Below are positions 20,141-60,203 of a stretch of 64,000 nt of DNA, piece by piece. How positions within the stretch are numbered: the first letter of the stretch is position 1; each line of letters begins with the position of its first letter. Location of the stretch: IMG/VR virus record IMGVR_UViG_3300028588_000015, positions 64,001 to 128,000 of that record; one strand, written 5' to 3'. Below the pieces are notes generated by a model, which ran no database searches, was not told the DNA's origin, and saw only the letters and a list, made by a program, of their open reading frames with translations. Position numbers and translations under genes: made by a program. The stretch comes from a virus. Lineage: Duplodnaviria; Caudoviricetes.

Positions 20141-20160
20141 AAAATATGGCCACATATTCT
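20141..20160 (+). promoter_or_regulatory. possible early phage promoter (partial match)
   Basis: GGCCACATATTCT resembles the CACATATYAC motif found at six other intergenic sites. Confidence 0.35.
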
Positions 20161-28868: not shown

Positions 28869-30491
28869 ATGAATACCATGCACCAGTACTACGACCTCAT
28901 CCGGAAAGTCATCACCGAAGGTAACATCCGTACCGACCGCACCAACACCGGTACCATTTCGTTATTCGGCCCGCAAATCGAATTCAACCTCGCCGACGGC
29001 TTCCCGCTCGACCCCAGCCGCCAAGTGTTCCTGCGCGGCGATCTGGAAGAACTCTTCTGGATGCTGCGTGGCTCGACTAACAATAACGAACTGACGGCCA
29101 AGAACGTCAACATCTGGACCCAGTGGGCAATCCGCCAAGAGCACGTAGAATACACCCAAGCCGAGCGTCTTGCCATGCTTCGCGAGAAGTTCATGCAAGA
29201 CACCGGCGATGGCGCCGCTGGCCAGACGGTTTATTTGTCAACGATGGCCGAAGCGATCGATATCGACAAGATGCTCGACGGTCACGGTATTCCGAAGGAA
29301 AAATACGCCAAGGAGCAGTTGGCCATGCTCTTCCAGAAGCTAGTGGAAAAGAACGGTTCCAAGGAAATTGCTCTATCCCACTACGACGCGATGTTCAAAG
29401 GCGGTGTGAGCCAAGAGCAGTTCAACACCATCATGAAGAACTACGGCATCCCCGGCGCCCCGAAGATCGGCGCCCTCGGTCCCATTTATGGCGAGCAGTG
29501 GTGTAAGTGGCCTGACCCAGAGAAAGACGAGACCAAGTTCTTTTCAGTACCAGAGCGCGTCCAGATGGCCGAAGATTATCTGGCCAGCGGCGCGGCTGAA
29601 AAGTTCACGCAGGCAGACTTGGACAGCGTCAAGGACCAGTACCAACAATACCTCGATGAGAAAAGTAATGGCGCCACTGGCTCGACGATGGAAGAACTGC
29701 TGCACGATGACATCGATACTTGGGGTATCCCCAACAAGGTCACGCGACGTACCACCCACAACCAAATCGCCAAGCTGATCGAGGACCTAAAGAAGCGACC
29801 CAATTCGCGGCGTCACATTGTCTCGACCTGGAACGTACCCTACCTGCCGGACGAATCGCTGTCGCCCCAGCAGAACATCATGCGTGGTAAAATGGCACTG
29901 GCGCCATGTCACACCCTCTTCCAGTATTACGTGGAAGGACGCGCGTCCATGGAAATGTGTAAGGAACTTACGACAGAGCAACTGGACGAGTACATGCAAT
30001 ATTGCAGAGAAAACGAGCTAGAAGTTCATGCTTTCCAATCGGATCAGCGCGGGTTTATCGACGATCCGAAGTACTGGGAAGTAATTTTCAATTTCGACAA
30101 GAAGAAGTTGGTCAATGACTGGTTCAAAGAACGTGGCATCAAAACCCAGAAGCTGTCCTGCAAGTTGTACCAGCGTTCGTGCGATCTCCTCGTCGGTGGC
30201 GCCTTTAACATTGCCGCCTATGCTGCACAAACCATGATGGTCGCCCAGTGCGTCGACATGGTCCCGGGCCGGTTCATCCATACATTCGGCGACGTCCACA
30301 TCTACAAGGACCACATGTTGCCTAACTCGGATGGCGACTCTGTGTTCACGCAGTTGGAACGTGAAGTGCGCGCGATGCCGGTCCTCTTGATTAACCCGGA
30401 AGTGAAAGACATCTTCGCCTTCAAGTACGAAGACTTCAAGTTGACCGATTATAACCCCCACAAAAAGATCAACTACAAAGTCGCGGTTTAA
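28869..30491 (+). CDS. thyA: thymidylate synthase with large helical insertions (540 aa)
   Basis: RTDRTNTGT, EELFW.LRG, NIW.QWA, GPIYG.QW, SRRHIVSTWN, catalytic LAPCH, LYQRSCDL..G..FNIAAY, FGDVHIYKDH. Confidence 0.95.
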   Translation: MNTMHQYYDLIRKVITEGNIRTDRTNTGTISLFGPQIEFNLADGFPLDPSRQVFLRGDLEELFWMLRGSTNNNELTAKNVNIWTQWAIRQEHVEYTQAERLAMLREKFMQDTGDGAAGQTVYLSTMAEAIDIDKMLDGHGIPKEKYAKEQLAMLFQKLVEKNGSKEIALSHYDAMFKGGVSQEQFNTIMKNYGIPGAPKIGALGPIYGEQWCKWPDPEKDETKFFSVPERVQMAEDYLASGAAEKFTQADLDSVKDQYQQYLDEKSNGATGSTMEELLHDDIDTWGIPNKVTRRTTHNQIAKLIEDLKKRPNSRRHIVSTWNVPYLPDESLSPQQNIMRGKMALAPCHTLFQYYVEGRASMEMCKELTTEQLDEYMQYCRENELEVHAFQSDQRGFIDDPKYWEVIFNFDKKKLVNDWFKERGIKTQKLSCKLYQRSCDLLVGGAFNIAAYAAQTMMVAQCVDMVPGRFIHTFGDVHIYKDHMLPNSDGDSVFTQLEREVRAMPVLLINPEVKDIFAFKYEDFKLTDYNPHKKINYKVAV

Positions 30492-47507: not shown

Positions 47508-47933
47508 ATGAGCACCCAAGATCAGAATCAAGAAGTCCAGTTTGACACGGAGAAAGTTAATGCGCTGCCGGTATGGAAAGCGGAAGACCAGCTCACATCC
47601 ATGGGCCTCGTCGCAGCATTCGCCAAAGAGTTCACGGCATCCGACGTTAGTGACGCCGAGCGACTCGCTGCGTTGGAAAGCATCGCCAAGACGGAACAAG
47701 CATTCGTCGATCAAGATACGCTCGTTGGGAAACTCGAGCTGGAGGTGTATTGTCAAGATCGCGCCGACCAGATGATCGCGCGTGAAGATGCACTTGCGCA
47801 GCTGGTGAGTGCTAAGAAAAGCCGGGCGTGGTTGAACATGCAAGGCCACGTACTCCAAGTGGTTATCGCGCTGGCCGATCTCGGTTACGGCGTGATCGAG
47901 TTGCCCAAGAAGGAATCCGGTAGCGATTCCTGA
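47508..47933 (+). CDS. hypothetical helical protein
   Basis: AAGGAGG RBS. Confidence 0.7.
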   Translation: MSTQDQNQEVQFDTEKVNALPVWKAEDQLTSMGLVAAFAKEFTASDVSDAERLAALESIAKTEQAFVDQDTLVGKLELEVYCQDRADQMIAREDALAQLVSAKKSRAWLNMQGHVLQVVIALADLGYGVIELPKKESGSDS

Positions 47934-50706: not shown

Positions 50707-50735
50707 TTTGGTTATTTGAAACAGGATTCAAGTCC

Positions 50736-50753
50736 TTTACAGTCACATATAAC
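50736..50753 (+). promoter_or_regulatory. early phage promoter motif
   Basis: TTTACAGTCACATATAAC. Confidence 0.65.
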
Positions 50754-50805
50754 CTGCCTGTACTGAGTCCAGTATTTCTATTAACCGTAAAGAAAGGAAG
50801 TAATC

Positions 50806-51087
50806 ATGAGCCAAGCCGCCGACCGTAACCTGACCTCCCATGACCTACTGCACGTTGGTATGTCGATGTTCGTATTCGGAAGCACCGACCAAAAACGCCT
50901 GCCGCCGTACATCCAAAATCAAGTGCGTGACGCCCGCGTCAACGAACTGAAAGCCAAGCAAGAACGTCTGCAAAATGCCGAGTGGACCATACCACGTTCG
51001 CTCTCTAAGGAAGAAGCCGAGGAACTCAAGACCCTGGAAGCCGAACAAGCTGCCAACCCCACCCGTACCCTTGCCGTCAAGCCGTAA
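50806..51087 (+). CDS. small early hypothetical protein
   Basis: AAGGA RBS; high GC3. Confidence 0.7.
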   Translation: MSQAADRNLTSHDLLHVGMSMFVFGSTDQKRLPPYIQNQVRDARVNELKAKQERLQNAEWTIPRSLSKEEAEELKTLEAEQAANPTRTLAVKP

Positions 51088-51194
51088 CGCTGTGAACCTC
51101 AGGAGTGACCCAATCGGGTCCTCCTGCTCGGGTAGTCATTTACTCAGTGATTGCCTTAGTTTTTTCTTGTTTGTTGACACAAAGGAAGTACATC

Positions 51195-51566
51195 ATGAAA
51201 GACAATATCCTTGCACAGATGAAAATCTGCTTGGCCGCTTTATTAACGGTCTGCACTGTCGTCATGTTTTTCAGTGGTCCACCGGGCGTCTTAGCGCTGT
51301 GTTATATATTCATGCCGTGGGTCAAGAGCACCTACAATTACGAACTCGCTTACGACCCGCAGTATTTTGCGGTCACCGACACATTCCAAAACGTATTGAC
51401 GGCCTCACTCGCCGTTGGCGTAGCGCTATTATTGGCGCGCATTGGATCGACCCATCCACGTTTCCGCTGGTGGGCGCATTTTGCTGTTTTAATGACGGCA
51501 GTAGTGACCATGGTCTTGATGCTGTGGAGTATTGGTCAAGGCGCAATTAAAACAGGTAGTTTTTAA
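51195..51566 (+). CDS. three-TM membrane protein
   Basis: AAGGA RBS, ATG at 51195; three hydrophobic segments; directly upstream of the second BCS1-like gene. Confidence 0.65.
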   Translation: MKDNILAQMKICLAALLTVCTVVMFFSGPPGVLALCYIFMPWVKSTYNYELAYDPQYFAVTDTFQNVLTASLAVGVALLLARIGSTHPRFRWWAHFAVLMTAVVTMVLMLWSIGQGAIKTGSF

Positions 51567-51584
51567 AGAAAAGGGAAAATCATC

Positions 51585-52865
51585 ATGCAGTCAACTTCGT
51601 TAATGAATGTCATCAGTCATTCGTCCAGTATCTGGACCATGCTTAGCAGTTTGTTACTGCTCTCCGGTGCTGGTTTACTCACCTACGCATTGCGGCGCAT
51701 TCCTAGTAAGATCGGCCGTTTTCTTTTGGCCCGCTTTACGGTCAGCCTGACGATGCATACGGCTGATCCGACTAGTACCATGATTTCGCAATCCTTTTTC
51801 ACTTGGTACATGAACAGCGCGGCGTCTAGACACATGCGGCGGTTCAGCTACGACACTGGTTGGAAAGATCGCGAACGGAATATGTCTGGCTCTGGACCTC
51901 GGCCTAACTCGGGCGTGTTCGCACCAGGTGTCGGGATTCATTTTTTCATGTTCAAGGGTACGCTGGCGTGGTTTACGCGCGAACGCAGCGCTAATTCGCT
52001 TAGCCCGAATACCCATGAAGTGGAAATCTATTTTGCAGGCACGCGCCGGCGGATTATCGAAGACTTCCTAGAAGAAATCAAACCAAAAGTCGACCGGCGC
52101 GATGTGCCGATCTACACACTTGGTCGCAAATACGGGGAAGCGAAGTGGGCCATGAGCCGCGTCAAGCGTAAACGCCAACTGGATTCGGTGGTCATTCGTC
52201 ACGACATCAAAGACATGGTTGTCAACACGATTGACGACTTTTACAAGCGCGAGCATTGGTATCTCGAACGCGGTATCACGTACAAACTGTCCTTTATCCT
52301 TCATGGGCAACCAGGTACCGGCAAAAGCAGTTTCATCTTCGCGCTGGCGTCGCACTTCAATCGTCCGGTGTATATGGTGAACATGAACGCACTGAACGAT
52401 ACCACCTTTCAATCTGTGCTCGATGAGGTAGGTGAAAACGCTTTCATCGTGATCGAGGATGTGGACGTCGGCACAGCCACCGCTGAGCGGGAAGAGGAAC
52501 CAGTCACCTTGGAAAAAGTAGTCAAGAACGGGGAAGAAAAGAAACAAGCCATTTCGATGAGCACGATTTTGAATACGCTTGACGGCATTGCCTCACTCAC
52601 GGGCAATGTGATTTTCCTGTCCACCAACCACTTGCAGAATCTCGACCGTGCATTGACCCGCCGTGGCCGGATTGACCACATCATCGAAATACCACCAATG
52701 CGCCACGAAGAAATTCAAGAATATGCGAGTTTGATGTACGAAAAAGAAGTCTTCCCGGTAGGCATCCACTTCAAGGACATGCCAGGCAGTGACGTCCAAG
52801 GGATTTTCTTGGACCACAAGGAAGACTTCGATGGCTTCGTGGCCGATATGTTGAAACACCAATAA
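51585..52865 (+). CDS. second BCS1-like membrane-anchored AAA+ ATPase
   Basis: N-terminal TM segment, FAPGVGIHFFMFKG, Walker A GQPGTGKSS, Walker B IVIEDVD, ILNTLDGI, STNH...LDRAL.RRGRID. Confidence 0.85.
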   Translation: MQSTSLMNVISHSSSIWTMLSSLLLLSGAGLLTYALRRIPSKIGRFLLARFTVSLTMHTADPTSTMISQSFFTWYMNSAASRHMRRFSYDTGWKDRERNMSGSGPRPNSGVFAPGVGIHFFMFKGTLAWFTRERSANSLSPNTHEVEIYFAGTRRRIIEDFLEEIKPKVDRRDVPIYTLGRKYGEAKWAMSRVKRKRQLDSVVIRHDIKDMVVNTIDDFYKREHWYLERGITYKLSFILHGQPGTGKSSFIFALASHFNRPVYMVNMNALNDTTFQSVLDEVGENAFIVIEDVDVGTATAEREEEPVTLEKVVKNGEEKKQAISMSTILNTLDGIASLTGNVIFLSTNHLQNLDRALTRRGRIDHIIEIPPMRHEEIQEYASLMYEKEVFPVGIHFKDMPGSDVQGIFLDHKEDFDGFVADMLKHQ

Positions 52866-52887
52866 ACTTTAAGAAAGAGGAAAGAAC

Positions 52888-53469
52888 ATGAGCAATATCG
52901 ATAAACTGATTCACGAGTCGGCGCTCAAAAAGATCAAAGCTGGCATCGCCAAGCGTGGCTTTGAATGCGTGACATTCATCTCGGATGAAAACGGTGAACA
53001 ACACCCGTACCACTATAGCGTGGGCTTGGCTGCCATGGGATTTGCCGAAATCTTCATCTCTGGCCGGCTGCCGCAAGAAACGGCCTACGCCTTCATCGAA
53101 AAGATGGTGGACACCTGGAAAGCCGAGAAAGGCGTGATGCTCGGTAAATTCGGCCCGTTCAAACGGCTGGTCGAAAAGGTGGCCCACAAAATGGTCAGCC
53201 GCAAGGCCACCGTAGTCGGTCACTTCCCGGCTGTTGCACGGCAGCGTAACGGTGCGGCTATCCCGATGACGGTACGCTGGGTATCGGTGGATGAACGTCG
53301 CCAAGCCGCCCCAAGTTTCATGTCGTTCGTCTACGAAGTGTTCCCGGACCAAAAGAACATCCCGGTGGTCCAGTTGCTGTGGCCGGATGACCATGGCCAA
53401 CTGCCAGACTCGCCGCATTACACAGGTGACGAAGAGTACAAGCAAGAGTTGCTGCCGGTTCGAACATAA
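52888..53469 (+). CDS. DUF4262-like protein
   Basis: Y.YSVGL...GFAEIFISG and VVQLLWPD..GQLP motifs. Confidence 0.7.
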   Translation: MSNIDKLIHESALKKIKAGIAKRGFECVTFISDENGEQHPYHYSVGLAAMGFAEIFISGRLPQETAYAFIEKMVDTWKAEKGVMLGKFGPFKRLVEKVAHKMVSRKATVVGHFPAVARQRNGAAIPMTVRWVSVDERRQAAPSFMSFVYEVFPDQKNIPVVQLLWPDDHGQLPDSPHYTGDEEYKQELLPVRT

Positions 53470-53478
53470 AGGAAAAAC

Positions 53479-53874
53479 ATGGCTTCCTACTATGAAGAAT
53501 TGGTAGACGAAGTCGGTCGGGGTGTGGCGACTATCATCGGCACCCCTGATACGGTGATTCGCTATCAATTGCAACCAGCGCGTGTTTTATTGTTTTTGAT
53601 CACTAGCGAGGACATGCGTGTCCGTATGGGTGCTGGCCATTTGAAGATGCGCGATCTGGGTTACTATGTGGTACTTCGCCCTACCTCAACTGCCGGCTAT
53701 GATCCTTTGGTATATCCATTCGAAGTGGAATACACGACCGGCCAGGAGATCAAGGGTGACCCGATGATTGTCGGGACATACTCCGAAGAAATCCTCGACA
53801 GAGTCATCGGTTATGTGGCGCGATACCTGACCACGGGTCAACACCCAAACTTGGAAAAAACCATGATTAATTAA
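53479..53874 (+). CDS. hypothetical protein
   Basis: AAGGA RBS. Confidence 0.65.
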   Translation: MASYYEELVDEVGRGVATIIGTPDTVIRYQLQPARVLLFLITSEDMRVRMGAGHLKMRDLGYYVVLRPTSTAGYDPLVYPFEVEYTTGQEIKGDPMIVGTYSEEILDRVIGYVARYLTTGQHPNLEKTMIN

Positions 53875-53886
53875 GGAATAAAGAAC

Positions 53887-54393
53887 ATGAATAAAGAAGA
53901 AAGCAATAAGAAAGAAGATAAAGACATGGCGGACAAACTGCAAGACATGCTTTTTGGCTGGGGCTTATATCTCCAGTATAAAGAGTGTATCGACCATCTT
54001 CTCCAGCTGTACGAAGTGTGGTGCGAAGAGAAAGTGTCCATCAGATTGTTCAGGGAGTACCTCGCGGCCGATCCTGACTTAGTGCGGGCAAGCTTTAAAC
54101 TCATGCATGTAGCGCATGAGTACGACTCAACAATCGCCCAGGCTACAATCAAAGCCGCGATCGACAACATGATTCACAGCGCGATCGGTTCTCGGTGTCG
54201 TGAATTGGACAAGCTGGGAAACTTTCCAATCTACACACTTTCTGTGGACAAAAAAACGTTCAGACTGGAAGTGGTAGGGTACCACTGGACGATGGTCGAT
54301 ACGCAGGGGCGTTTTCTCTTGGTAAAAACAGGGAACTACTTCCTGTCGAAAGAACATGCCCAAGCAGCAATTGCCCGCGCACTTGAGGAATAA
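53887..54393 (+). CDS. hypothetical protein
   Basis: AAGGA RBS (ATG at 53926 is an alternative start). Confidence 0.6.
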   Translation: MNKEESNKKEDKDMADKLQDMLFGWGLYLQYKECIDHLLQLYEVWCEEKVSIRLFREYLAADPDLVRASFKLMHVAHEYDSTIAQATIKAAIDNMIHSAIGSRCRELDKLGNFPIYTLSVDKKTFRLEVVGYHWTMVDTQGRFLLVKTGNYFLSKEHAQAAIARALEE

Positions 54394-54489
54394 CGTGTGA
54401 AGAAATACGGGTGCTCTGTAGATATTGAATGCTAGGCAGTAATTAAAATAGCGCAGAGCACCTCTTTCTTTCTCATCTCTAGGAGCATT

Positions 54490-54909
54490 ATGTCCGAAGC
54501 CATCACTCCGACCGATCTCGCAAAACGCATCAGTTTCATCGATGCCGCGCGGTCGCTGCAATCCTACATCGGGAACAACAACCCGACCCAATTGCCGCTG
54601 CTGATCGTTTACAGCCAAGACCAGAAGCGCATGTACATCGGTATCGTGAAACCCGGCTTCACGCCCGGCCCGATTCGGGACAATAAGTTCGCGGTTCGCG
54701 GTCATGTCTTCATCGTGTTCGATGCCAGCGAACTCTACCCCGATACCCCGATGGGCGTCATCTTCGATGATGAAAACCTCACCGAAGACCCGTCCAACGA
54801 GGTGCGCTATTACACGACACTTGACACAGTGGTCATGGGCAACACAGCAATGGCATATCTGGGCCTGATCGACGACAGTTCGCTGGCACCGGCAGGCCCC
54901 AGCGCGTAA
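54490..54909 (+). CDS. hypothetical protein
   Basis: AGGAG RBS; high GC3; followed by hairpin ACGGCTAGGG/CCCTAGCCGT. Confidence 0.7.
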   Translation: MSEAITPTDLAKRISFIDAARSLQSYIGNNNPTQLPLLIVYSQDQKRMYIGIVKPGFTPGPIRDNKFAVRGHVFIVFDASELYPDTPMGVIFDDENLTEDPSNEVRYYTTLDTVVMGNTAMAYLGLIDDSSLAPAGPSA

Positions 54910-55025
54910 ATACCACATACAACACGGCTAGGGTTACCCCTAGCCGTTATGCCGGATTCGTAAAAGATACTAGGTTAATTTAACTATGGGACGAGACACC
55001 GTCCGCAAAAAAAGAGGATAGAACA

Positions 55026-56054
55026 ATGAATGAAAATCGTAACCCTAAATTGGGTGTGTTTGTCGACGGTGTGCTTGCCTACTTACACCAACCGGCACAA
55101 CAACCCAAGCAACATGTGGCGGTGTCGTACAACGCGGACAACGACACCTACTGGTTTGTGTTGCAAAAAGAAGCAACACTGGTTGAAAACAAAACCAAAA
55201 CCGAACTGGAAAGCATGCGCGGCAAGCTTCCTCGGTTAGTCCAACTGGGGTACGTGGAAAACAACTCCGCCAAGCCTTTCCTTTTGCTTTTCATGAATGA
55301 ACGCGGCCCCTACAGCGACGGTACACCGCACACCCTCCCTTGCGCATCTTGCGACATAACCCAATCGCGCGACGCCATGAAGAGCATCTACAATTACTTA
55401 GTCGGTGGTCTCTTTACGCCGTCCTTAAGTTACGGAGCATACCGTCCCAGAGGGGCGGCCGACCCCAGTGTCGAGTATGTGAAAACAACAGACGCTGAGC
55501 CAGCAGTCATTGCTGCCCGGCGAGAACTCAAACAGAATCTGATGCGTGCCCAGCGCACCCGACTCATGACACGTGAACGCGCTATTTTCGCTGCCACGTA
55601 TTTCCTCGACTACTCCGGGTGGGAACCGTATAACAACGAGGACTACACCAAAGAAGAACTGGACGCCATCGAAGAAAGGTTCGAAAAGAATAGTATTCCC
55701 AAGTACAGTGAAGACATCAATGCGCAGCAGCGTCTTGCTATTTATCTTGTTCTGAACGACGCCATGAATGTGAACCATGCACTCCATGCGCAGATGCTCG
55801 CGCCAGTATTACTGGGTGCCAGTGTTCACGGGTTACGACTACGGACCCAATTGAAGAACCTCCTGACGTGGCATGGCATTTATTTTGTTGGCCAATTGAC
55901 TGAACGATTTGCCCACGAACTCATCCGGGCCGACGGTATTGGTAAAACGTCGATCGCGCAAATCGAACGCGAATTAGAGCGTGTCGGCCTGTCACTCAAG
56001 AAAACCCCCCTTCCCTTTAAAATTACTTCAAAAAGGAACAGAAAAAATGGCTGA
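55026..56054 (+). CDS. protein with a C-terminal RNA polymerase alpha-CTD-like domain
   Basis: APVLLGASVHGLRLRTQLKNLL...IYFVGQL.ER...EL...GIGKTSIAQI...L...GLSL aligns with RpoA-CTD ([21 protein letters not shown]...IHYIGDL.QR...ELL...NLGKKSLTEI..VL..RGLSL). Confidence 0.75.
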   Translation: MNENRNPKLGVFVDGVLAYLHQPAQQPKQHVAVSYNADNDTYWFVLQKEATLVENKTKTELESMRGKLPRLVQLGYVENNSAKPFLLLFMNERGPYSDGTPHTLPCASCDITQSRDAMKSIYNYLVGGLFTPSLSYGAYRPRGAADPSVEYVKTTDAEPAVIAARRELKQNLMRAQRTRLMTRERAIFAATYFLDYSGWEPYNNEDYTKEELDAIEERFEKNSIPKYSEDINAQQRLAIYLVLNDAMNVNHALHAQMLAPVLLGASVHGLRLRTQLKNLLTWHGIYFVGQLTERFAHELIRADGIGKTSIAQIERELERVGLSLKKTPLPFKITSKRNRKNG

Positions 56055-56847
56055 TACACCCTACAATCCAGATCGAGACCGGCAATTGATTCCCCACCAC
56101 TTACGTACCGTGCTAGCGGCAGCATGCTATAGCGTCATGAACATCGACAATGCTAGGACCCACGTGGGCGAAGCCCGTGAAGTTCTGGCGATGAACGCAC
56201 GCAAAGTGCCGGTCTGGGTGGACGAACTCACACCCGAGCAATGCACCATACTCCATGAATTCGTGGAGAGTAACAAGATTCCCGAAGGGTTCAAACGCCT
56301 GTCGCACGCGGTCCGGGCGGTCATCGCACAGAACTACTTCGACTGGGTGGTGGTCCTGTCAGCGCATGAAGAAGACCAGGTCATCGAGGCCAATGCAATG
56401 GATGCCATGGGTGTGCCGATGTTCGAGCATCAACTCAACAAGACGCAGCGCGAATATCTCGCACTTAACCCACTCGTCGAGATGGGAAGCGAACCCATCA
56501 AAAAGATACTCGCTGCGCCGGCGCCGTTGGAATCGCCCGAGGCCGTCGTCAAGAAAATGGCTGAGGCACTCACGACCGATCAACTCGACGATCTCATCGG
56601 CATCCTGAACCTGCGGCGTTCCGCTGTCAGTCACAACGCACAAAACGAACCGGGCAAGAAGTATGAGCTGCTCACCTGGGAACCGGACGAACAGGGCTTC
56701 ATTTCCGATGAACCGACCGTCGTCAGCAGCCATGCGACGCCTGACGAAGCCGATCTGGCAATGGAGCGCTTCAATGCCCGCCAAGTGTTCGCCGACATTT
56801 TGCTGTTCCAGAAAGACCTGAAAGAAGGTGGACGTGATGCTCAATGA
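56047..56847 (+). CDS. hypothetical protein
   Basis: Start reassigned to the ATG at 56047 (AAGGA RBS). Confidence 0.65.
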   Translation: MADTPYNPDRDRQLIPHHLRTVLAAACYSVMNIDNARTHVGEAREVLAMNARKVPVWVDELTPEQCTILHEFVESNKIPEGFKRLSHAVRAVIAQNYFDWVVVLSAHEEDQVIEANAMDAMGVPMFEHQLNKTQREYLALNPLVEMGSEPIKKILAAPAPLESPEAVVKKMAEALTTDQLDDLIGILNLRRSAVSHNAQNEPGKKYELLTWEPDEQGFISDEPTVVSSHATPDEADLAMERFNARQVFADILLFQKDLKEGGRDAQ

Positions 56848-57238
56848 AAGTCATATCGCCGCGCTTTGGGATCTTTTGCAAGAGCGCGCACCGCTGCGGG
56901 TCATTCGTAATGACGAAGATTACGCGGCAGTAAAAGCGACGGCCGATAGTCTGGCCGACCTAGTGGGGGATGATGTAAGCCATCCTCTCTTCCCGATGTT
57001 TGATTTGGCGATGGCCTTGATCGACAAGTGGAAAGAGTCCATCACGATTCCGGATGTCAAATCTAAATACGTTTTGATGCACTTGATGTTCGAGCATAAC
57101 CTGGCGCCGGCCCAGATGAAAGACATTGCTTCCGAGTCCCACATCATGGCGATTTTGAAAGGCAGTCGCCCCATCAGTAGCCGCTTGGCTAAAAAGTTGA
57201 CCAAGCGGTTTAATGTCGGTATCTCGGCATTCATTTAA
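56837..57238 (+). CDS. HigA-like antitoxin / HTH regulator, orphan
   Basis: IRNDEDY..V....D.L.D.VGDD..HPL..M.DL....ID.W, then L.HLM.EHNL....M...S...I..IL.G.R.IS...AKKL..RF.V...FI. Confidence 0.8.
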   Translation: MLNESHIAALWDLLQERAPLRVIRNDEDYAAVKATADSLADLVGDDVSHPLFPMFDLAMALIDKWKESITIPDVKSKYVLMHLMFEHNLAPAQMKDIASESHIMAILKGSRPISSRLAKKLTKRFNVGISAFI

Positions 57239-57262
57239 CTATCATAGAAAGAGGAAAGTACT

Positions 57263-57721
57263 ATGCTGAAAGTACAAGAACAAAACAACAACGAGTCGAT
57301 CCCGCAATACGTACGCGGCATCGTGGCGACCGTTATCGAAGAACTCAAGGGCGAGGAGAACGGCGAACTGCTGGTCAATCACAATATCGGTTCGCAGCAT
57401 ACCTGGCTGATGTTCTCCCTCGGCAACAATGAACATCACTACGTGGCCAAGCTGTCGCATGTCGTGTATCCAGAAGAAACGCTCGTCACTGTCTTCGAAG
57501 ACCGGCGCGATCCGAAGGTCATCCCGATGGAGGCAGGGAAACACCCTATTGTTCTTCCGACGACCAAGACCCGTCATTATCAGCCGAAGAAATACTTCGG
57601 CATGAGCGAACGCGGCGGCCTGAACAGCGCCGTCTACGTGACCGATGTGACGCGGCGCGATGAATCGTTCATGCCGGCCGACATCATCGGTTTCCTCCGC
57701 CACGGCGTGATGCCGAATTAA
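57263..57721 (+). CDS. hypothetical protein
   Basis: GAGGA RBS; high GC3. Confidence 0.7.
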   Translation: MLKVQEQNNNESIPQYVRGIVATVIEELKGEENGELLVNHNIGSQHTWLMFSLGNNEHHYVAKLSHVVYPEETLVTVFEDRRDPKVIPMEAGKHPIVLPTTKTRHYQPKKYFGMSERGGLNSAVYVTDVTRRDESFMPADIIGFLRHGVMPN

Positions 57722-57755
57722 TTTCAACCGCAGTCAACCACAGAGGAGTATTACC

Positions 57756-58268
57756 ATGACCATCGATAACAAAGAGAACGCACCACAAGAACCGATTCGC
57801 ATCATCGTGACGGGTCCCAGCGCCTCAGGCAAAACAGCGATCGTGGGCCTGATCGCTGAATTACTCGAGCGCACGGCGGGATTCACTGACATCGTCATCA
57901 CGAACCCAGAAGAAACGTTGAGTGGTATCCGGGAAAAGATGTCCGCGCTCGTCTCGGGCGAAATGAACGCCGTCTTCGATGTCTGCTCGCGCGCGGTCGA
58001 AATCTCGGAAACCGGGCCGCTGACATACGGTCTCGAACAAGACTTCCGCGGTCATGAACGAGCTACCGGTATCGCCTACCATGTGTGGGCGGGCGAGGAC
58101 GCCGGCAAAATGGTTTCGTCCAGGGAAGCGATGGATGCGGCACAGGGGGTCGCTGAAAAGATCGACAGCGTCGATTCGGCGACCAATAACTTCGACAACA
58201 ACGTCAACATCTGTAACCAATGGGCGATTCGCCAGGAGCATCTCGACAACTACGACGTAAAGAAATAA
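57756..58268 (+). CDS. small protein with Walker A (P-loop) motif
   Basis: IIVTGPSASGKTAIVGLIAELL; no clear Walker B. Confidence 0.6.
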   Translation: MTIDNKENAPQEPIRIIVTGPSASGKTAIVGLIAELLERTAGFTDIVITNPEETLSGIREKMSALVSGEMNAVFDVCSRAVEISETGPLTYGLEQDFRGHERATGIAYHVWAGEDAGKMVSSREAMDAAQGVAEKIDSVDSATNNFDNNVNICNQWAIRQEHLDNYDVKK

Positions 58269-58619: not shown

Positions 58620-60203
58620 ATGAACACGAACAAAAACAAAGAACTGTCGTACGAAGCCCGCATGTCGTTGGCCATCACTCTTTACGGTGCCGTCGACATC
58701 GCATCTGGCGCCATCTTCGGCAAGAACAGGGTGATCGAAAAAATGGACCAACTCGGTGTCCCGAAATTCGAATCCGAGCTTACCCCAAAACAACGACAAG
58801 TGCTGGAAGAAAAGGGCCACCTGATTCGCGAAGTGAATCTGGAAAACCCGAAGCAAAATATCCTGTTCGATCAAGAACCATCTGTCGGTGATTTCCGCGA
58901 CCGCGCGCAAAACCTTGAAAAGCCGCTCAACGACGGCGGCGTGTACCACCTCGACGTGTCGCATGGACCGAATGGTTGGCTAGTGGCGCACCATCTGTTT
59001 CATGCACTGAAAGTGCAGGGTGTTTCGATGGAACTGGCCGACGGTACTTTCGTCGATCCGACTGTCCTCGAAGCAGTGCTTGCTGAATCGGGCTGGAACT
59101 GGCAACAAAGCAAGTTCGTGATCGTGCTGCCGGTCTTGAAGGACATCAAAGAGAAGGCCGACGCGTACAACACAATGTACCGGGAAGCAGCCGAAGCGGC
59201 CAGCGCCCTCGAAGACGCCCAAGCGAAGTACACCGAAGCCATGCTCAAGCTGGGCAAAAACCCGGCGCCGGCGATGTTCAAGCCGCAATCCTCGGGCCAG
59301 CCTTTCACCGACGACAACCGTAAGCCGAGCTGGTTGGGTGATGCGCCGGCCAGCCAAGAACATCCCAGCTTCTTTGACGTTCCACGCACCAATTCTGAGA
59401 TCAATCGAGAATCGTTTAGGCACGTGCCGTTCGATGTGCTCGAGCGCGTATTTAAGACTCTTGATCGCGAGATGGTACTCAAAATGTACAGTTTGGAGCT
59501 GAACGAATACGAGGCCATCAAGGAAGCATTGAAGTGCGGTTTCCAGGTTCTCTGGCAAAAGAGTACCGCCATGTTGTATGTAACGGATATACCCATCTCG
59601 TCGCAGGCGGGCATTGAAGGCTTTGCGGCATATATCCAAGATACACGCAAGGCAGAACGTCGCCTGAATCAAGCAAGTCACCGTATTACCCGGCGCTTTA
59701 TTTTGAATGCTCGTCTTGATTCCATGCCAGTTCGCCGCATGGAATTGAATAACCTGCCGATTTCCATGGTGGTGAATGACTTCACGGGATGGCGGCGCGT
59801 TGCGGCGATGCGCTACTACGGTCTGAGCGAGGCAGAAGTCGGTGGCTTCCTGCGCAGCGTACGCAGCGGCTATCGTGCCATCATCAAGGCCGACGGTACG
59901 CTTGGCGGGGACAGCGTCATGCCGGTCGATAAGGAAAAAGGGTTCGGTGGTCACTTGGTGTACGAAAAGGGTGCCGGTCTTATCGGCGGCGACATCAGTC
60001 CTGAGCGACACCAAGAATTGATGTCGGCATTCCGGAAGATTCAGCAATATCCGACGGGCTTCTACATGAAGGAACCGGTTCCAACTCAGCCCGCTGATGT
60101 TAGCGATGATTTTCAGGGCGAGCAGTTGAATGGTACGATCGAATTGCCGGAGAAAGAAAATTTCGATAACCCGCCGACGCCAGAAGAACCGCCGCAATCG
60201 TAA
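58620..60203 (+). CDS. hypothetical protein (527 aa)
   Basis: Long ORF; internal repeat R.....Y.L...E........G(F/Y). Confidence 0.75.
   Translation: MNTNKNKELSYEARMSLAITLYGAVDIASGAIFGKNRVIEKMDQLGVPKFESELTPKQRQVLEEKGHLIREVNLENPKQNILFDQEPSVGDFRDRAQNLEKPLNDGGVYHLDVSHGPNGWLVAHHLFHALKVQGVSMELADGTFVDPTVLEAVLAESGWNWQQSKFVIVLPVLKDIKEKADAYNTMYREAAEAASALEDAQAKYTEAMLKLGKNPAPAMFKPQSSGQPFTDDNRKPSWLGDAPASQEHPSFFDVPRTNSEINRESFRHVPFDVLERVFKTLDREMVLKMYSLELNEYEAIKEALKCGFQVLWQKSTAMLYVTDIPISSQAGIEGFAAYIQDTRKAERRLNQASHRITRRFILNARLDSMPVRRMELNNLPISMVVNDFTGWRRVAAMRYYGLSEAEVGGFLRSVRSGYRAIIKADGTLGGDSVMPVDKEKGFGGHLVYEKGAGLIGGDISPERHQELMSAFRKIQQYPTGFYMKEPVPTQPADVSDDFQGEQLNGTIELPEKENFDNPPTPEEPPQS

Follow-up and report, generated by a model that had tools for sequence, protein, structure and literature searches.

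Results

Gene and domain organisation

Positions 55026..56054 of the DNA analysed here carry, on the plus strand, a gene for a protein of 342 amino acids, P0001, whose C-terminal end is a homologue of the α-subunit C-terminal domain (α-CTD) found in RNA polymerase (RNAP). The DNA, which we call the window, is a stretch of 64,000 nucleotides, bases 64001-128000 of the IMG/VR virus record IMGVR_UViG_3300028588_000015, which is 225.5 kb long and estimated to be 85% complete. The gene was taken from the list of open reading frames (ORFs) and its translation, and ends with a stop codon at 56052-56054. Its start codon is set by the N-terminus MxxNxNPKL, which is kept in the orthologues, and a Shine-Dalgarno-like GAGGA, read from the sequence, lies 7 nt 5′ of the ATG (55014..55018, plus strand). 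Conservation among the relatives falls on the plus-strand frame of P0001, and the overlapping reverse-strand ORFs (81 and 120 residues) are without support.

The protein begins with a conserved N-terminal domain (residues 1-140, 55026..55445, delimited by alignments and a structural model) and continues into a variable, mostly helical linker (residues 141-259, 55446..55802, recognised from the alignment, the segment lengths and low model confidence), within which regular-expression and hidden Markov model (HMM) scans locate a module of about 35 residues (residues 209-245, 55650..55760). An α-CTD-type helix-hairpin-helix (HhH) domain follows (residues 260-324, equivalent to 251-314 of Escherichia coli α; 55803..55997), and the chain closes with a basic tail (residues 325-342, 55998..56051) that has a net charge of +7 by charge count; all of these segments are encoded on the plus strand. 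The first-pass annotation of this DNA had placed the α-CTD likeness at 55797-56001, which are the codons for residues 258-325, and had described what precedes it as a single uncharacterised domain of 270 residues. Uncharacterised it is, but it divides into the conserved domain of about 140 residues and the variable linker of about 120.

The C-terminal domain

Taken alone, P0001 falls below the gathering score (23.8 bits) of the Pfam model RNA_pol_A_CTD (PF03118): it reaches 17.2 bits as a whole protein (over residues 265-318), 20.4 bits as the C-terminal piece 255-342, and 20.2 bits in a scan of the phage genome, where it is the sole match to this model. Four orthologues score above the cut-off, among them P0083 (41.1 bits), P0004 (39.1 bits) and P0006 (26.7 bits). 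When the PDB was searched with phmmer, 38 of the 39 matches were RpoA chains, with best E-values of 2.4e-4 for the whole of P0001 and 4.5e-5 for residues 250-342; a profile built from five members of the family gave 50 matches, every one of them RpoA, the best at E 3.1e-9. The generic HhH model PF00633 (cut-off 24) recognises P0005 (26.8 bits) and P0083 (24.8 bits) and gives no match to P0001 itself, though the G-I-G hairpin is present.

The AlphaFold model of residues 252-332 has a mean pLDDT (predicted local distance difference test score) of 90.4 and was computed from a 40-sequence alignment that itself consists of α-CTD-like domains. Searched with Foldseek against the PDB, this model gave 40 matches at E <= 1e-3, and those listed are all RNAP structures matched at the α-CTD. 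The root-mean-square deviation (rmsd) from solved α-CTDs is 0.7-1.3 Å over 64-66 residues; the comparisons include 1z3e_B (template modelling (TM) score by target 0.93, rmsd 0.9 Å, 66 columns), 8y5t (TM 0.92, rmsd 0.7 Å) and 1lb2_E (TM 0.90, rmsd 1.3 Å). We conclude that the C-terminal domain of P0001 is a genuine α-CTD homologue with the α-CTD HhH fold. The likeness proposed in the first-pass annotation is thus borne out by the family profile and the superposition, including the predicted fold on which that proposal had been made to depend, as is the near gap-free alignment that it described: against E. coli α there is a single one-residue gap, near residue 264.

Nothing of the α N-terminal domain (RNA_pol_L or RNA_pol_A_bac) was found by Pfam in residues 1-260 at E <= 10, and the NCBIfam rpoA models cover residues 235-336 only, at 18-24 bits against cut-offs of 228-434; the phage as a whole likewise lacks an α N-terminal domain. 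We considered whether the end of the α N-terminal domain and the α linker had been captured along with the α-CTD, as HMMER extends the RpoA alignment back to residue 234, and rejected this. Nothing is gained in score by the extension (residues 234-324 reach 23.2 bits, compared to 25-26 bits for the domain alone), and the stretch is instead the GVPxFE module that is common to the neighbouring genes.

Contact surfaces

Beyond the gap, the E. coli position equals the P0001 position minus 10. Our alignment reproduces exactly the residue mapping that had been made at first pass: N268, G296 and S299 are kept (as N278, G306 and S309), R265 has become Q275, K298 has become T308, and the sequence DDLE at positions 258-261 is replaced by HGLR at 268-271. 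In addition, K297 is kept (K307) and C269 is changed to L279. The 265 determinant (R265, N268, C269, G296, K298, and S299) is therefore incomplete in P0001, with three of its six residues kept. Elsewhere in the family, position 265 is arginine in four of the six members and histidine in one. N268 is kept in three of the five aligned members and K298 likewise in three (P0002, P0004, and P0005); P0083, read by eye, shows both. Among the 34 nearest α-CTD-like domains that do not belong to RpoA, R265 occurs in 19, T298 in eight and Q265 in two. As both substitutions are found among other α-CTD-like domains, Q265 and T298 are, judged by this comparison, ordinary variation and not a signature.

It is the α-CTD that reads UP elements and to which most class I activators bind. 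Two of its surfaces make protein contacts: the 261 determinant (D258, D259, and E261) with σ region 4, and the 287 determinant (T285, E286, V287 and neighbours) with CRP-type activators (PMC1874639). In P0001, the 261 patch reads H-G-(L)-R; it is not kept relative to RpoA, and every orthologue varies there. The 287 patch reads F-A-H at the positions of T285, E286, and V287, and it too varies among the orthologues. T263 is replaced by arginine (R273) and A267 by lysine (K277); these two, together with H-G-L-R and its arginine (R271), flank the predicted DNA face and add positive charge beside it. The G-h-G hairpin of the HhH motif is invariant across the family (in P0001 it is G-I-G-K-T-S, residues 304-309), and the C-terminal tail has a net charge of +6 to +7 in five of the six members. 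The sixth, P0006, has no tail and its domain itself carries a net charge of +9.

N-terminal domain and linker

The N-terminal domain has 29 invariant columns, and the members are 39-49% identical over it. The invariant columns, which include the loop NERGxYxxGxPH (residues 91-102 of P0001), indicate from conservation that the domain has a defined functional site. The model shows an α+β sandwich in the order helix, antiparallel sheet, helix, with pLDDT values of 64-85 over most of residues 1-130 and two low-confidence loops (residues 23-27 and 93-102) below 50. The domain has no sequence match in Pfam, PHROG, NCBIfam or the PDB, and feature and structure searches of the Atlas gave nothing usable for it. 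Its fold matches (a Mediator subunit at Z 7.4, frataxin at 6.1, PsiB at 5.8 and SycH/SpcS at 5.1-5.4) lie in the background range of the tool. Prediction of a homodimer from two copies of the domain scored 0.11, where the mark of the tool is 0.42, a result that counts neither for nor against dimerisation. BFVD and the Atlas gave only weak matches to small phage proteins; those to uncharacterised ones from phages 201phi2-1 and Phabio we note as a lead only. P0015 (2474 residues), which had appeared as a possible relative of the N-terminal domain, was rejected: the match is a chance one of 36 residues, repeated in identical repeats of 140 residues.

The module in the linker has the core IPKYSEDINAQQ and the general form GVPxFExxLTxxQ, and forms a helix-loop-helix. 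Copies occur in P0001, in the insert of P0006, twice in the 266-residue protein encoded next to P0001, and once in a 527-residue protein at 58620, in the next operon; those in the window lie at 55650-55760, 56206-56310, 56413-56520, and 58722-58830. The module was also recognised (E 5e-4) in a sequence outside the HMM training set, the 317-residue orthologue in a related phage (L002:7153-8106). It may be a common docking element.

Family and distribution

When 1.84 billion representative proteins were searched exhaustively, no more than four full-length relatives of P0001 came up (P0002, P0004, P0005, and P0006); a domain search supplied P0083 as the sixth member. The six share 29-48% identity. 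Linker length varies from 121 residues in P0001 and 109 in P0006 to 34-39 in the short orthologues. Four members, P0001 among them, come from jumbo-phage contigs that measure 218-225 kb; one of these contigs has terminal repeats and is rated complete. On this distribution, the family is confined to a small clade of uncultured jumbo phages.

Searches with blastn and tblastn of the P0001 gene, P0004, and P0003 (an α-CTD protein of a related phage) in 50,697 phage records turned up no true homologue from a phage; the matches of P0003 were to rpoA of bacterial or contaminated records only. None of the members belongs to a PHROGs family. In 201phi2-1 and Ralstonia phage FLC4-3B, a search for the two domains came back empty, although such an answer shows nothing by itself. 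Since no cultured phiKZ-like phage that was searched has the gene, we regard it as accessory and place it outside the phage's core transcription machinery.

The nearest relatives of the C-terminal domain are free-standing or tandem α-CTD-like proteins that have no α N-terminal domain. The domain scores 35-37 bits against these (in a single stretch), compared to at most 27 bits against any RpoA in the PDB. P0003 itself (202 residues, 35.7 bits to PF03118) is a second α-CTD protein in a related complete jumbo phage, located at L002:3131-3739 (the G003:C1:115919-116089 region) between the genes for a BCS1-type AAA protein and a DUF4262 protein. By eye its N-terminus resembles a helix-turn-helix (HTH), for which Pfam gives no match, and the window has no counterpart of P0003 at the syntenic place (52865-52888).

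The phage and the operon

A metagenome run from leaf litter contains the whole of the DNA and may be its source. The genome encodes phiKZ-type internal head proteins and virion proteins, one of the latter being 34-38% identical to proteins of the Ralstonia phages RP12, RSL2, and FLC4-3B and of Burkholderia FLC phages, as well as split RNAP β- and β′-like genes and a tubulin-like gene. Because of the virion proteins, the split RNAP genes, and the tubulin-like gene, we regard the phage as distantly phiKZ-like and probably nucleus-forming, which agrees with the phiKZ-like character given to it at first pass. The RNAPs of phiKZ-like phages have no α subunits (PMC7598289).

A promoter-like motif, ...AAAAAAATTACAGTCACATATyAC, was found by position weight matrix (PWM) scan in 19 copies in the genome, all on the plus strand; these score between 23.7 and 40.3, and the next best site scores 11.3. 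The copies in the window are at 20152, 26196, 40083, 47951, 50745, 58290, and 60641 (plus strand). The motif is often followed by CTAAGTG and a hairpin, and another copy stands 86 nt before the RNAP β-like ORF. The copy nearest upstream of the P0001 gene (50723..50760, plus strand, PWM score 35.0) is 4.3 kb away. In jumbo phages that encode RNAPs, the virion RNAP has as its early promoter an AT-rich, conserved motif that precedes the early operons (PMC7598289). By analogy, the 19-copy motif is probably an early (virion RNAP) promoter class, and the copy at 50723..50760 is the probable early promoter of an operon spanning 50975-58268 that includes the P0001 gene.

The P0001 gene is the seventh of 11 genes between the motif copies at 50745 and 58290. 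The products of this operon include a BCS1-type AAA ATPase, a DUF4262 protein, an HTH protein, a P-loop protein, and proteins of no assigned type, and the gene order is kept in three other jumbo-phage genomes. Immediately downstream is the gene for the 266-residue protein, a conserved neighbour (56047..56847, plus strand) whose ATG overlaps the last 8 nt of the P0001 gene. The 116-nt spacer before the P0001 gene contains a 10-bp GC-rich hairpin (54924..54947, plus strand) that is not followed by a T-run on the plus strand; it might serve in processing or in stability, or might act as terminator for a phage RNAP. A private promoter for P0001 at 54914 (CACATACAAC, adjoining the hairpin) was considered and rejected, its PWM score being -3.9 (rank 645).

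In a leaf-litter metatranscriptome, three short contigs are identical to parts of a 16-kb stretch around the gene, at 47517-47749 and 56460-56746, two of them within the downstream 266-residue gene. No contig falls on the P0001 gene itself, though such contigs cannot show absence. They hint that the phage is active in the sampled community; carry-over of DNA is possible.

Some neighbours deserve a brief description. The BCS1-type ATPase (BCS1_N and AAA, 426 residues) and, directly after it, the DUF4262 protein are encoded at 51585-53469; the first is 63% identical to its counterpart in the related locus L002, and the second is 65-70% identical to those in L002 and L004. Two genes downstream of P0001, a 136-residue protein (56828-57238) has no Pfam or NCBIfam match at E <= 0.01, and its L002 orthologue has the Pfam domain HTH_3. 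Further away in the window, at 28869-30491, a thymidylate synthase homologue of 540 residues spans a 335-position profile from end to end and must therefore contain an insertion of about 200 residues or more.

Discussion

We favour, with roughly even confidence, the reading that P0001 is an accessory and probably early DNA-anchored adaptor, in which the C-terminal module sits on DNA and the N-terminal domain is presented to a partner. We suggest that the α-CTD-type HhH module and the basic tail would dock on duplex DNA by contacting its backbone and minor groove, with a plausible preference for AT-rich DNA. The long flexible linker would then allow the N-terminal domain, which we presume binds a partner, to hold or position a protein through its NERGxYxxGxPH loop. 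The likeliest arena would be host DNA or host transcription during takeover, where P0001 might, for example, occupy promoter-upstream DNA. We prefer an adaptor to a decoy because conservation falls on the hairpin and the basic tails; the patches that contact σ and activators are not conserved, and this speaks against mimicry of a protein. P0001 is accessory, not being detected in the cultured phiKZ-like phages searched, and is more likely to be directed at the host than to serve as a subunit of the phage polymerase.

A number of observations weigh against the adaptor. R265 is the key minor-groove contact of the E. coli α-CTD, and the changes of R265 to glutamine and K298 to threonine may mean that canonical UP-element-type binding is weak in P0001. 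We found no published measurement of DNA binding for free-standing α-CTD-like proteins. The fold of the N-terminal domain has no significant match, a Foldseek search of the PDB with the whole-protein model having returned nothing at E <= 1e-3. Finally, the probable early timing of P0001 rests on a motif that was assigned by analogy.

The first-pass annotation had read the same changes differently, as those of a decoy that titrates host activators or α-CTD partners and so reprogrammes host transcription. Such a decoy would be a free copy of the α-CTD, its DNA contacts disabled, and could titrate class I activators, σ region 4 or NusA, with host transcription shut down or reprogrammed as the outcome. 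A phage that has no need of the host RNAP (PMC7598289) could carry out such sabotage at no cost; the fold is genuinely that of an α-CTD, Q265 and T298 are indeed present in P0001, and the gene is probably early. The family does not bear out the removal of the DNA contacts, however, since R265 is found in four of the six members and K298 in the short forms, so the substitutions are not common to the orthologues, yet they are common in other α-CTD-like domains. Moreover, the 261 and 287 surfaces that a decoy would require are replaced (H-G-L-R and F-A-H), the former differently in every orthologue, and identity to any RpoA is only about 30%. Conserved basic tails and a canonical HhH hairpin are not what one would expect of a DNA-blind protein. 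We consider the decoy unlikely.

A role in phage transcription seems to us unlikely also. In such a scheme, P0001 would be an α-CTD acting in trans, with its N-terminal domain on a subunit or factor of the phage RNAP and its C-terminal module on the A-rich tract upstream of phage promoters, where it would stimulate transcription or switch off early promoters. The arrangement of domain, flexible linker, and α-CTD does copy the logic of the α subunit, a conserved A-tract lies immediately upstream of the CACATATyAC core at the 19 motif sites, and the phage RNAPs lack α (PMC7598289). On the other hand, the gene is limited to one small clade of uncultured phages and was not found when 201phi2-1 and FLC4-3B, which have the same RNAP types, were searched, and the N-terminal domain is unlike that of α (no Pfam match, and rpoA models far below their cut-offs). 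An early product would in any case arrive too late for the first early round unless it were packaged in the virion, and nothing indicates packaging.

HhH motifs are general binders of the nucleic-acid backbone, and P0001 might act outside transcription altogether, as a protein of replication, repair or packaging that binds phage DNA or RNA, or as a tether to the nucleoid or phage nucleus. The generic HhH model does recognise two orthologues, and the neighbouring genes (BCS1-type AAA ATPase, DUF4262, P-loop, and proteins of no assigned type) have no transcription signature. We nevertheless judge this improbable: the domain is specifically of the α-CTD subtype, all 50 of the PDB matches to the family profile being RpoA, and the second α-CTD protein encoded nearby in one related phage hints at a theme linked to transcription. 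That P0001 is a detachable α-CTD arm for the α-less phage RNAP, or a feedback regulator of it, which reads the promoter A-tract, has in our view only a slim chance of being correct; such an arm would bring to phiKZ-type transcription its first mechanism resembling that of UP elements.

The domain itself, and phage proteins in the databases that carry it, were known already. What is new here is the partner domain, the restriction to one clade of uncultured jumbo phages, and the occurrence in a phage that does not use the host RNAP. Full-text literature searches found no paper on a phage-encoded copy of the α-CTD, though copies recur in uncultured phages. Since the phage has α-less polymerases of its own, P0001 would be expected to interfere with the host, or else to give the phage enzyme a function that it lacks. 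Each of these roles, performed by a small and modular protein, would add a new mechanism to the biology of phage-host transcription.

Comparison with known systems

The closest characterised counterpart is the C-terminal domain of RpoA itself (about residues 249-329; PF03118; PDB 1LB2, 3K4G, and 1Z3E), which has the same fold, aligns collinearly with one single-residue gap, and has N268, G296, K297, and S299 in common with P0001. The differences are considerable. P0001 lacks the α N-terminal assembly domain, has R265 changed to glutamine, C269 to leucine, and K298 to threonine, and has both the 261 and 287 patches replaced. Its hairpin is G-I-G in place of N-L-G, it has a basic tail of 18 extra residues, and identity is about 30%, with a best RpoA score of 27 bits.

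T4 Alt and ModA ADP-ribosylate R265 of α. The acetyltransferase Rac of LUZ19 leads to cleavage of α, according to a passage in PMC7824862 (its reference 99). The theme in common would presumably be early interference by the phage with the layer of α-CTD and UP element. Those proteins are enzymes that modify the host α, whereas no enzyme signature is seen in P0001, which brings a copy of the domain instead.

We know of no α-like component of the phiKZ and AR9 RNAPs. Those enzymes are α-less and multisubunit (PMC7598289), and split β and β′ homologues of that kind are encoded in the present genome. Membership of P0001 in the phage RNAP enzyme is unlikely, because it lacks the α assembly domain and is missing from 201phi2-1 and FLC4-3B as searched.

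The nearest relatives of the domain are free-standing or tandem α-CTD-like proteins from metagenomes and phages, such as P0064, P0066, and P0008 (which match PF03118 only), P0003, and UniProt A0A6J5QDR9, the last from an uncultured Caudovirales phage; all are uncharacterised. They vary at positions 265 and 298 much as the P0001 family does, and in them, as in P0001, the domain is a portable module outside RpoA. Unlike them, the P0001 family, six proteins only and from one clade, adds an α+β domain of 140 residues with the NERGxYxxGxPH loop, and P0001 itself belongs to a phiKZ-like phage that is independent of the host RNAP.

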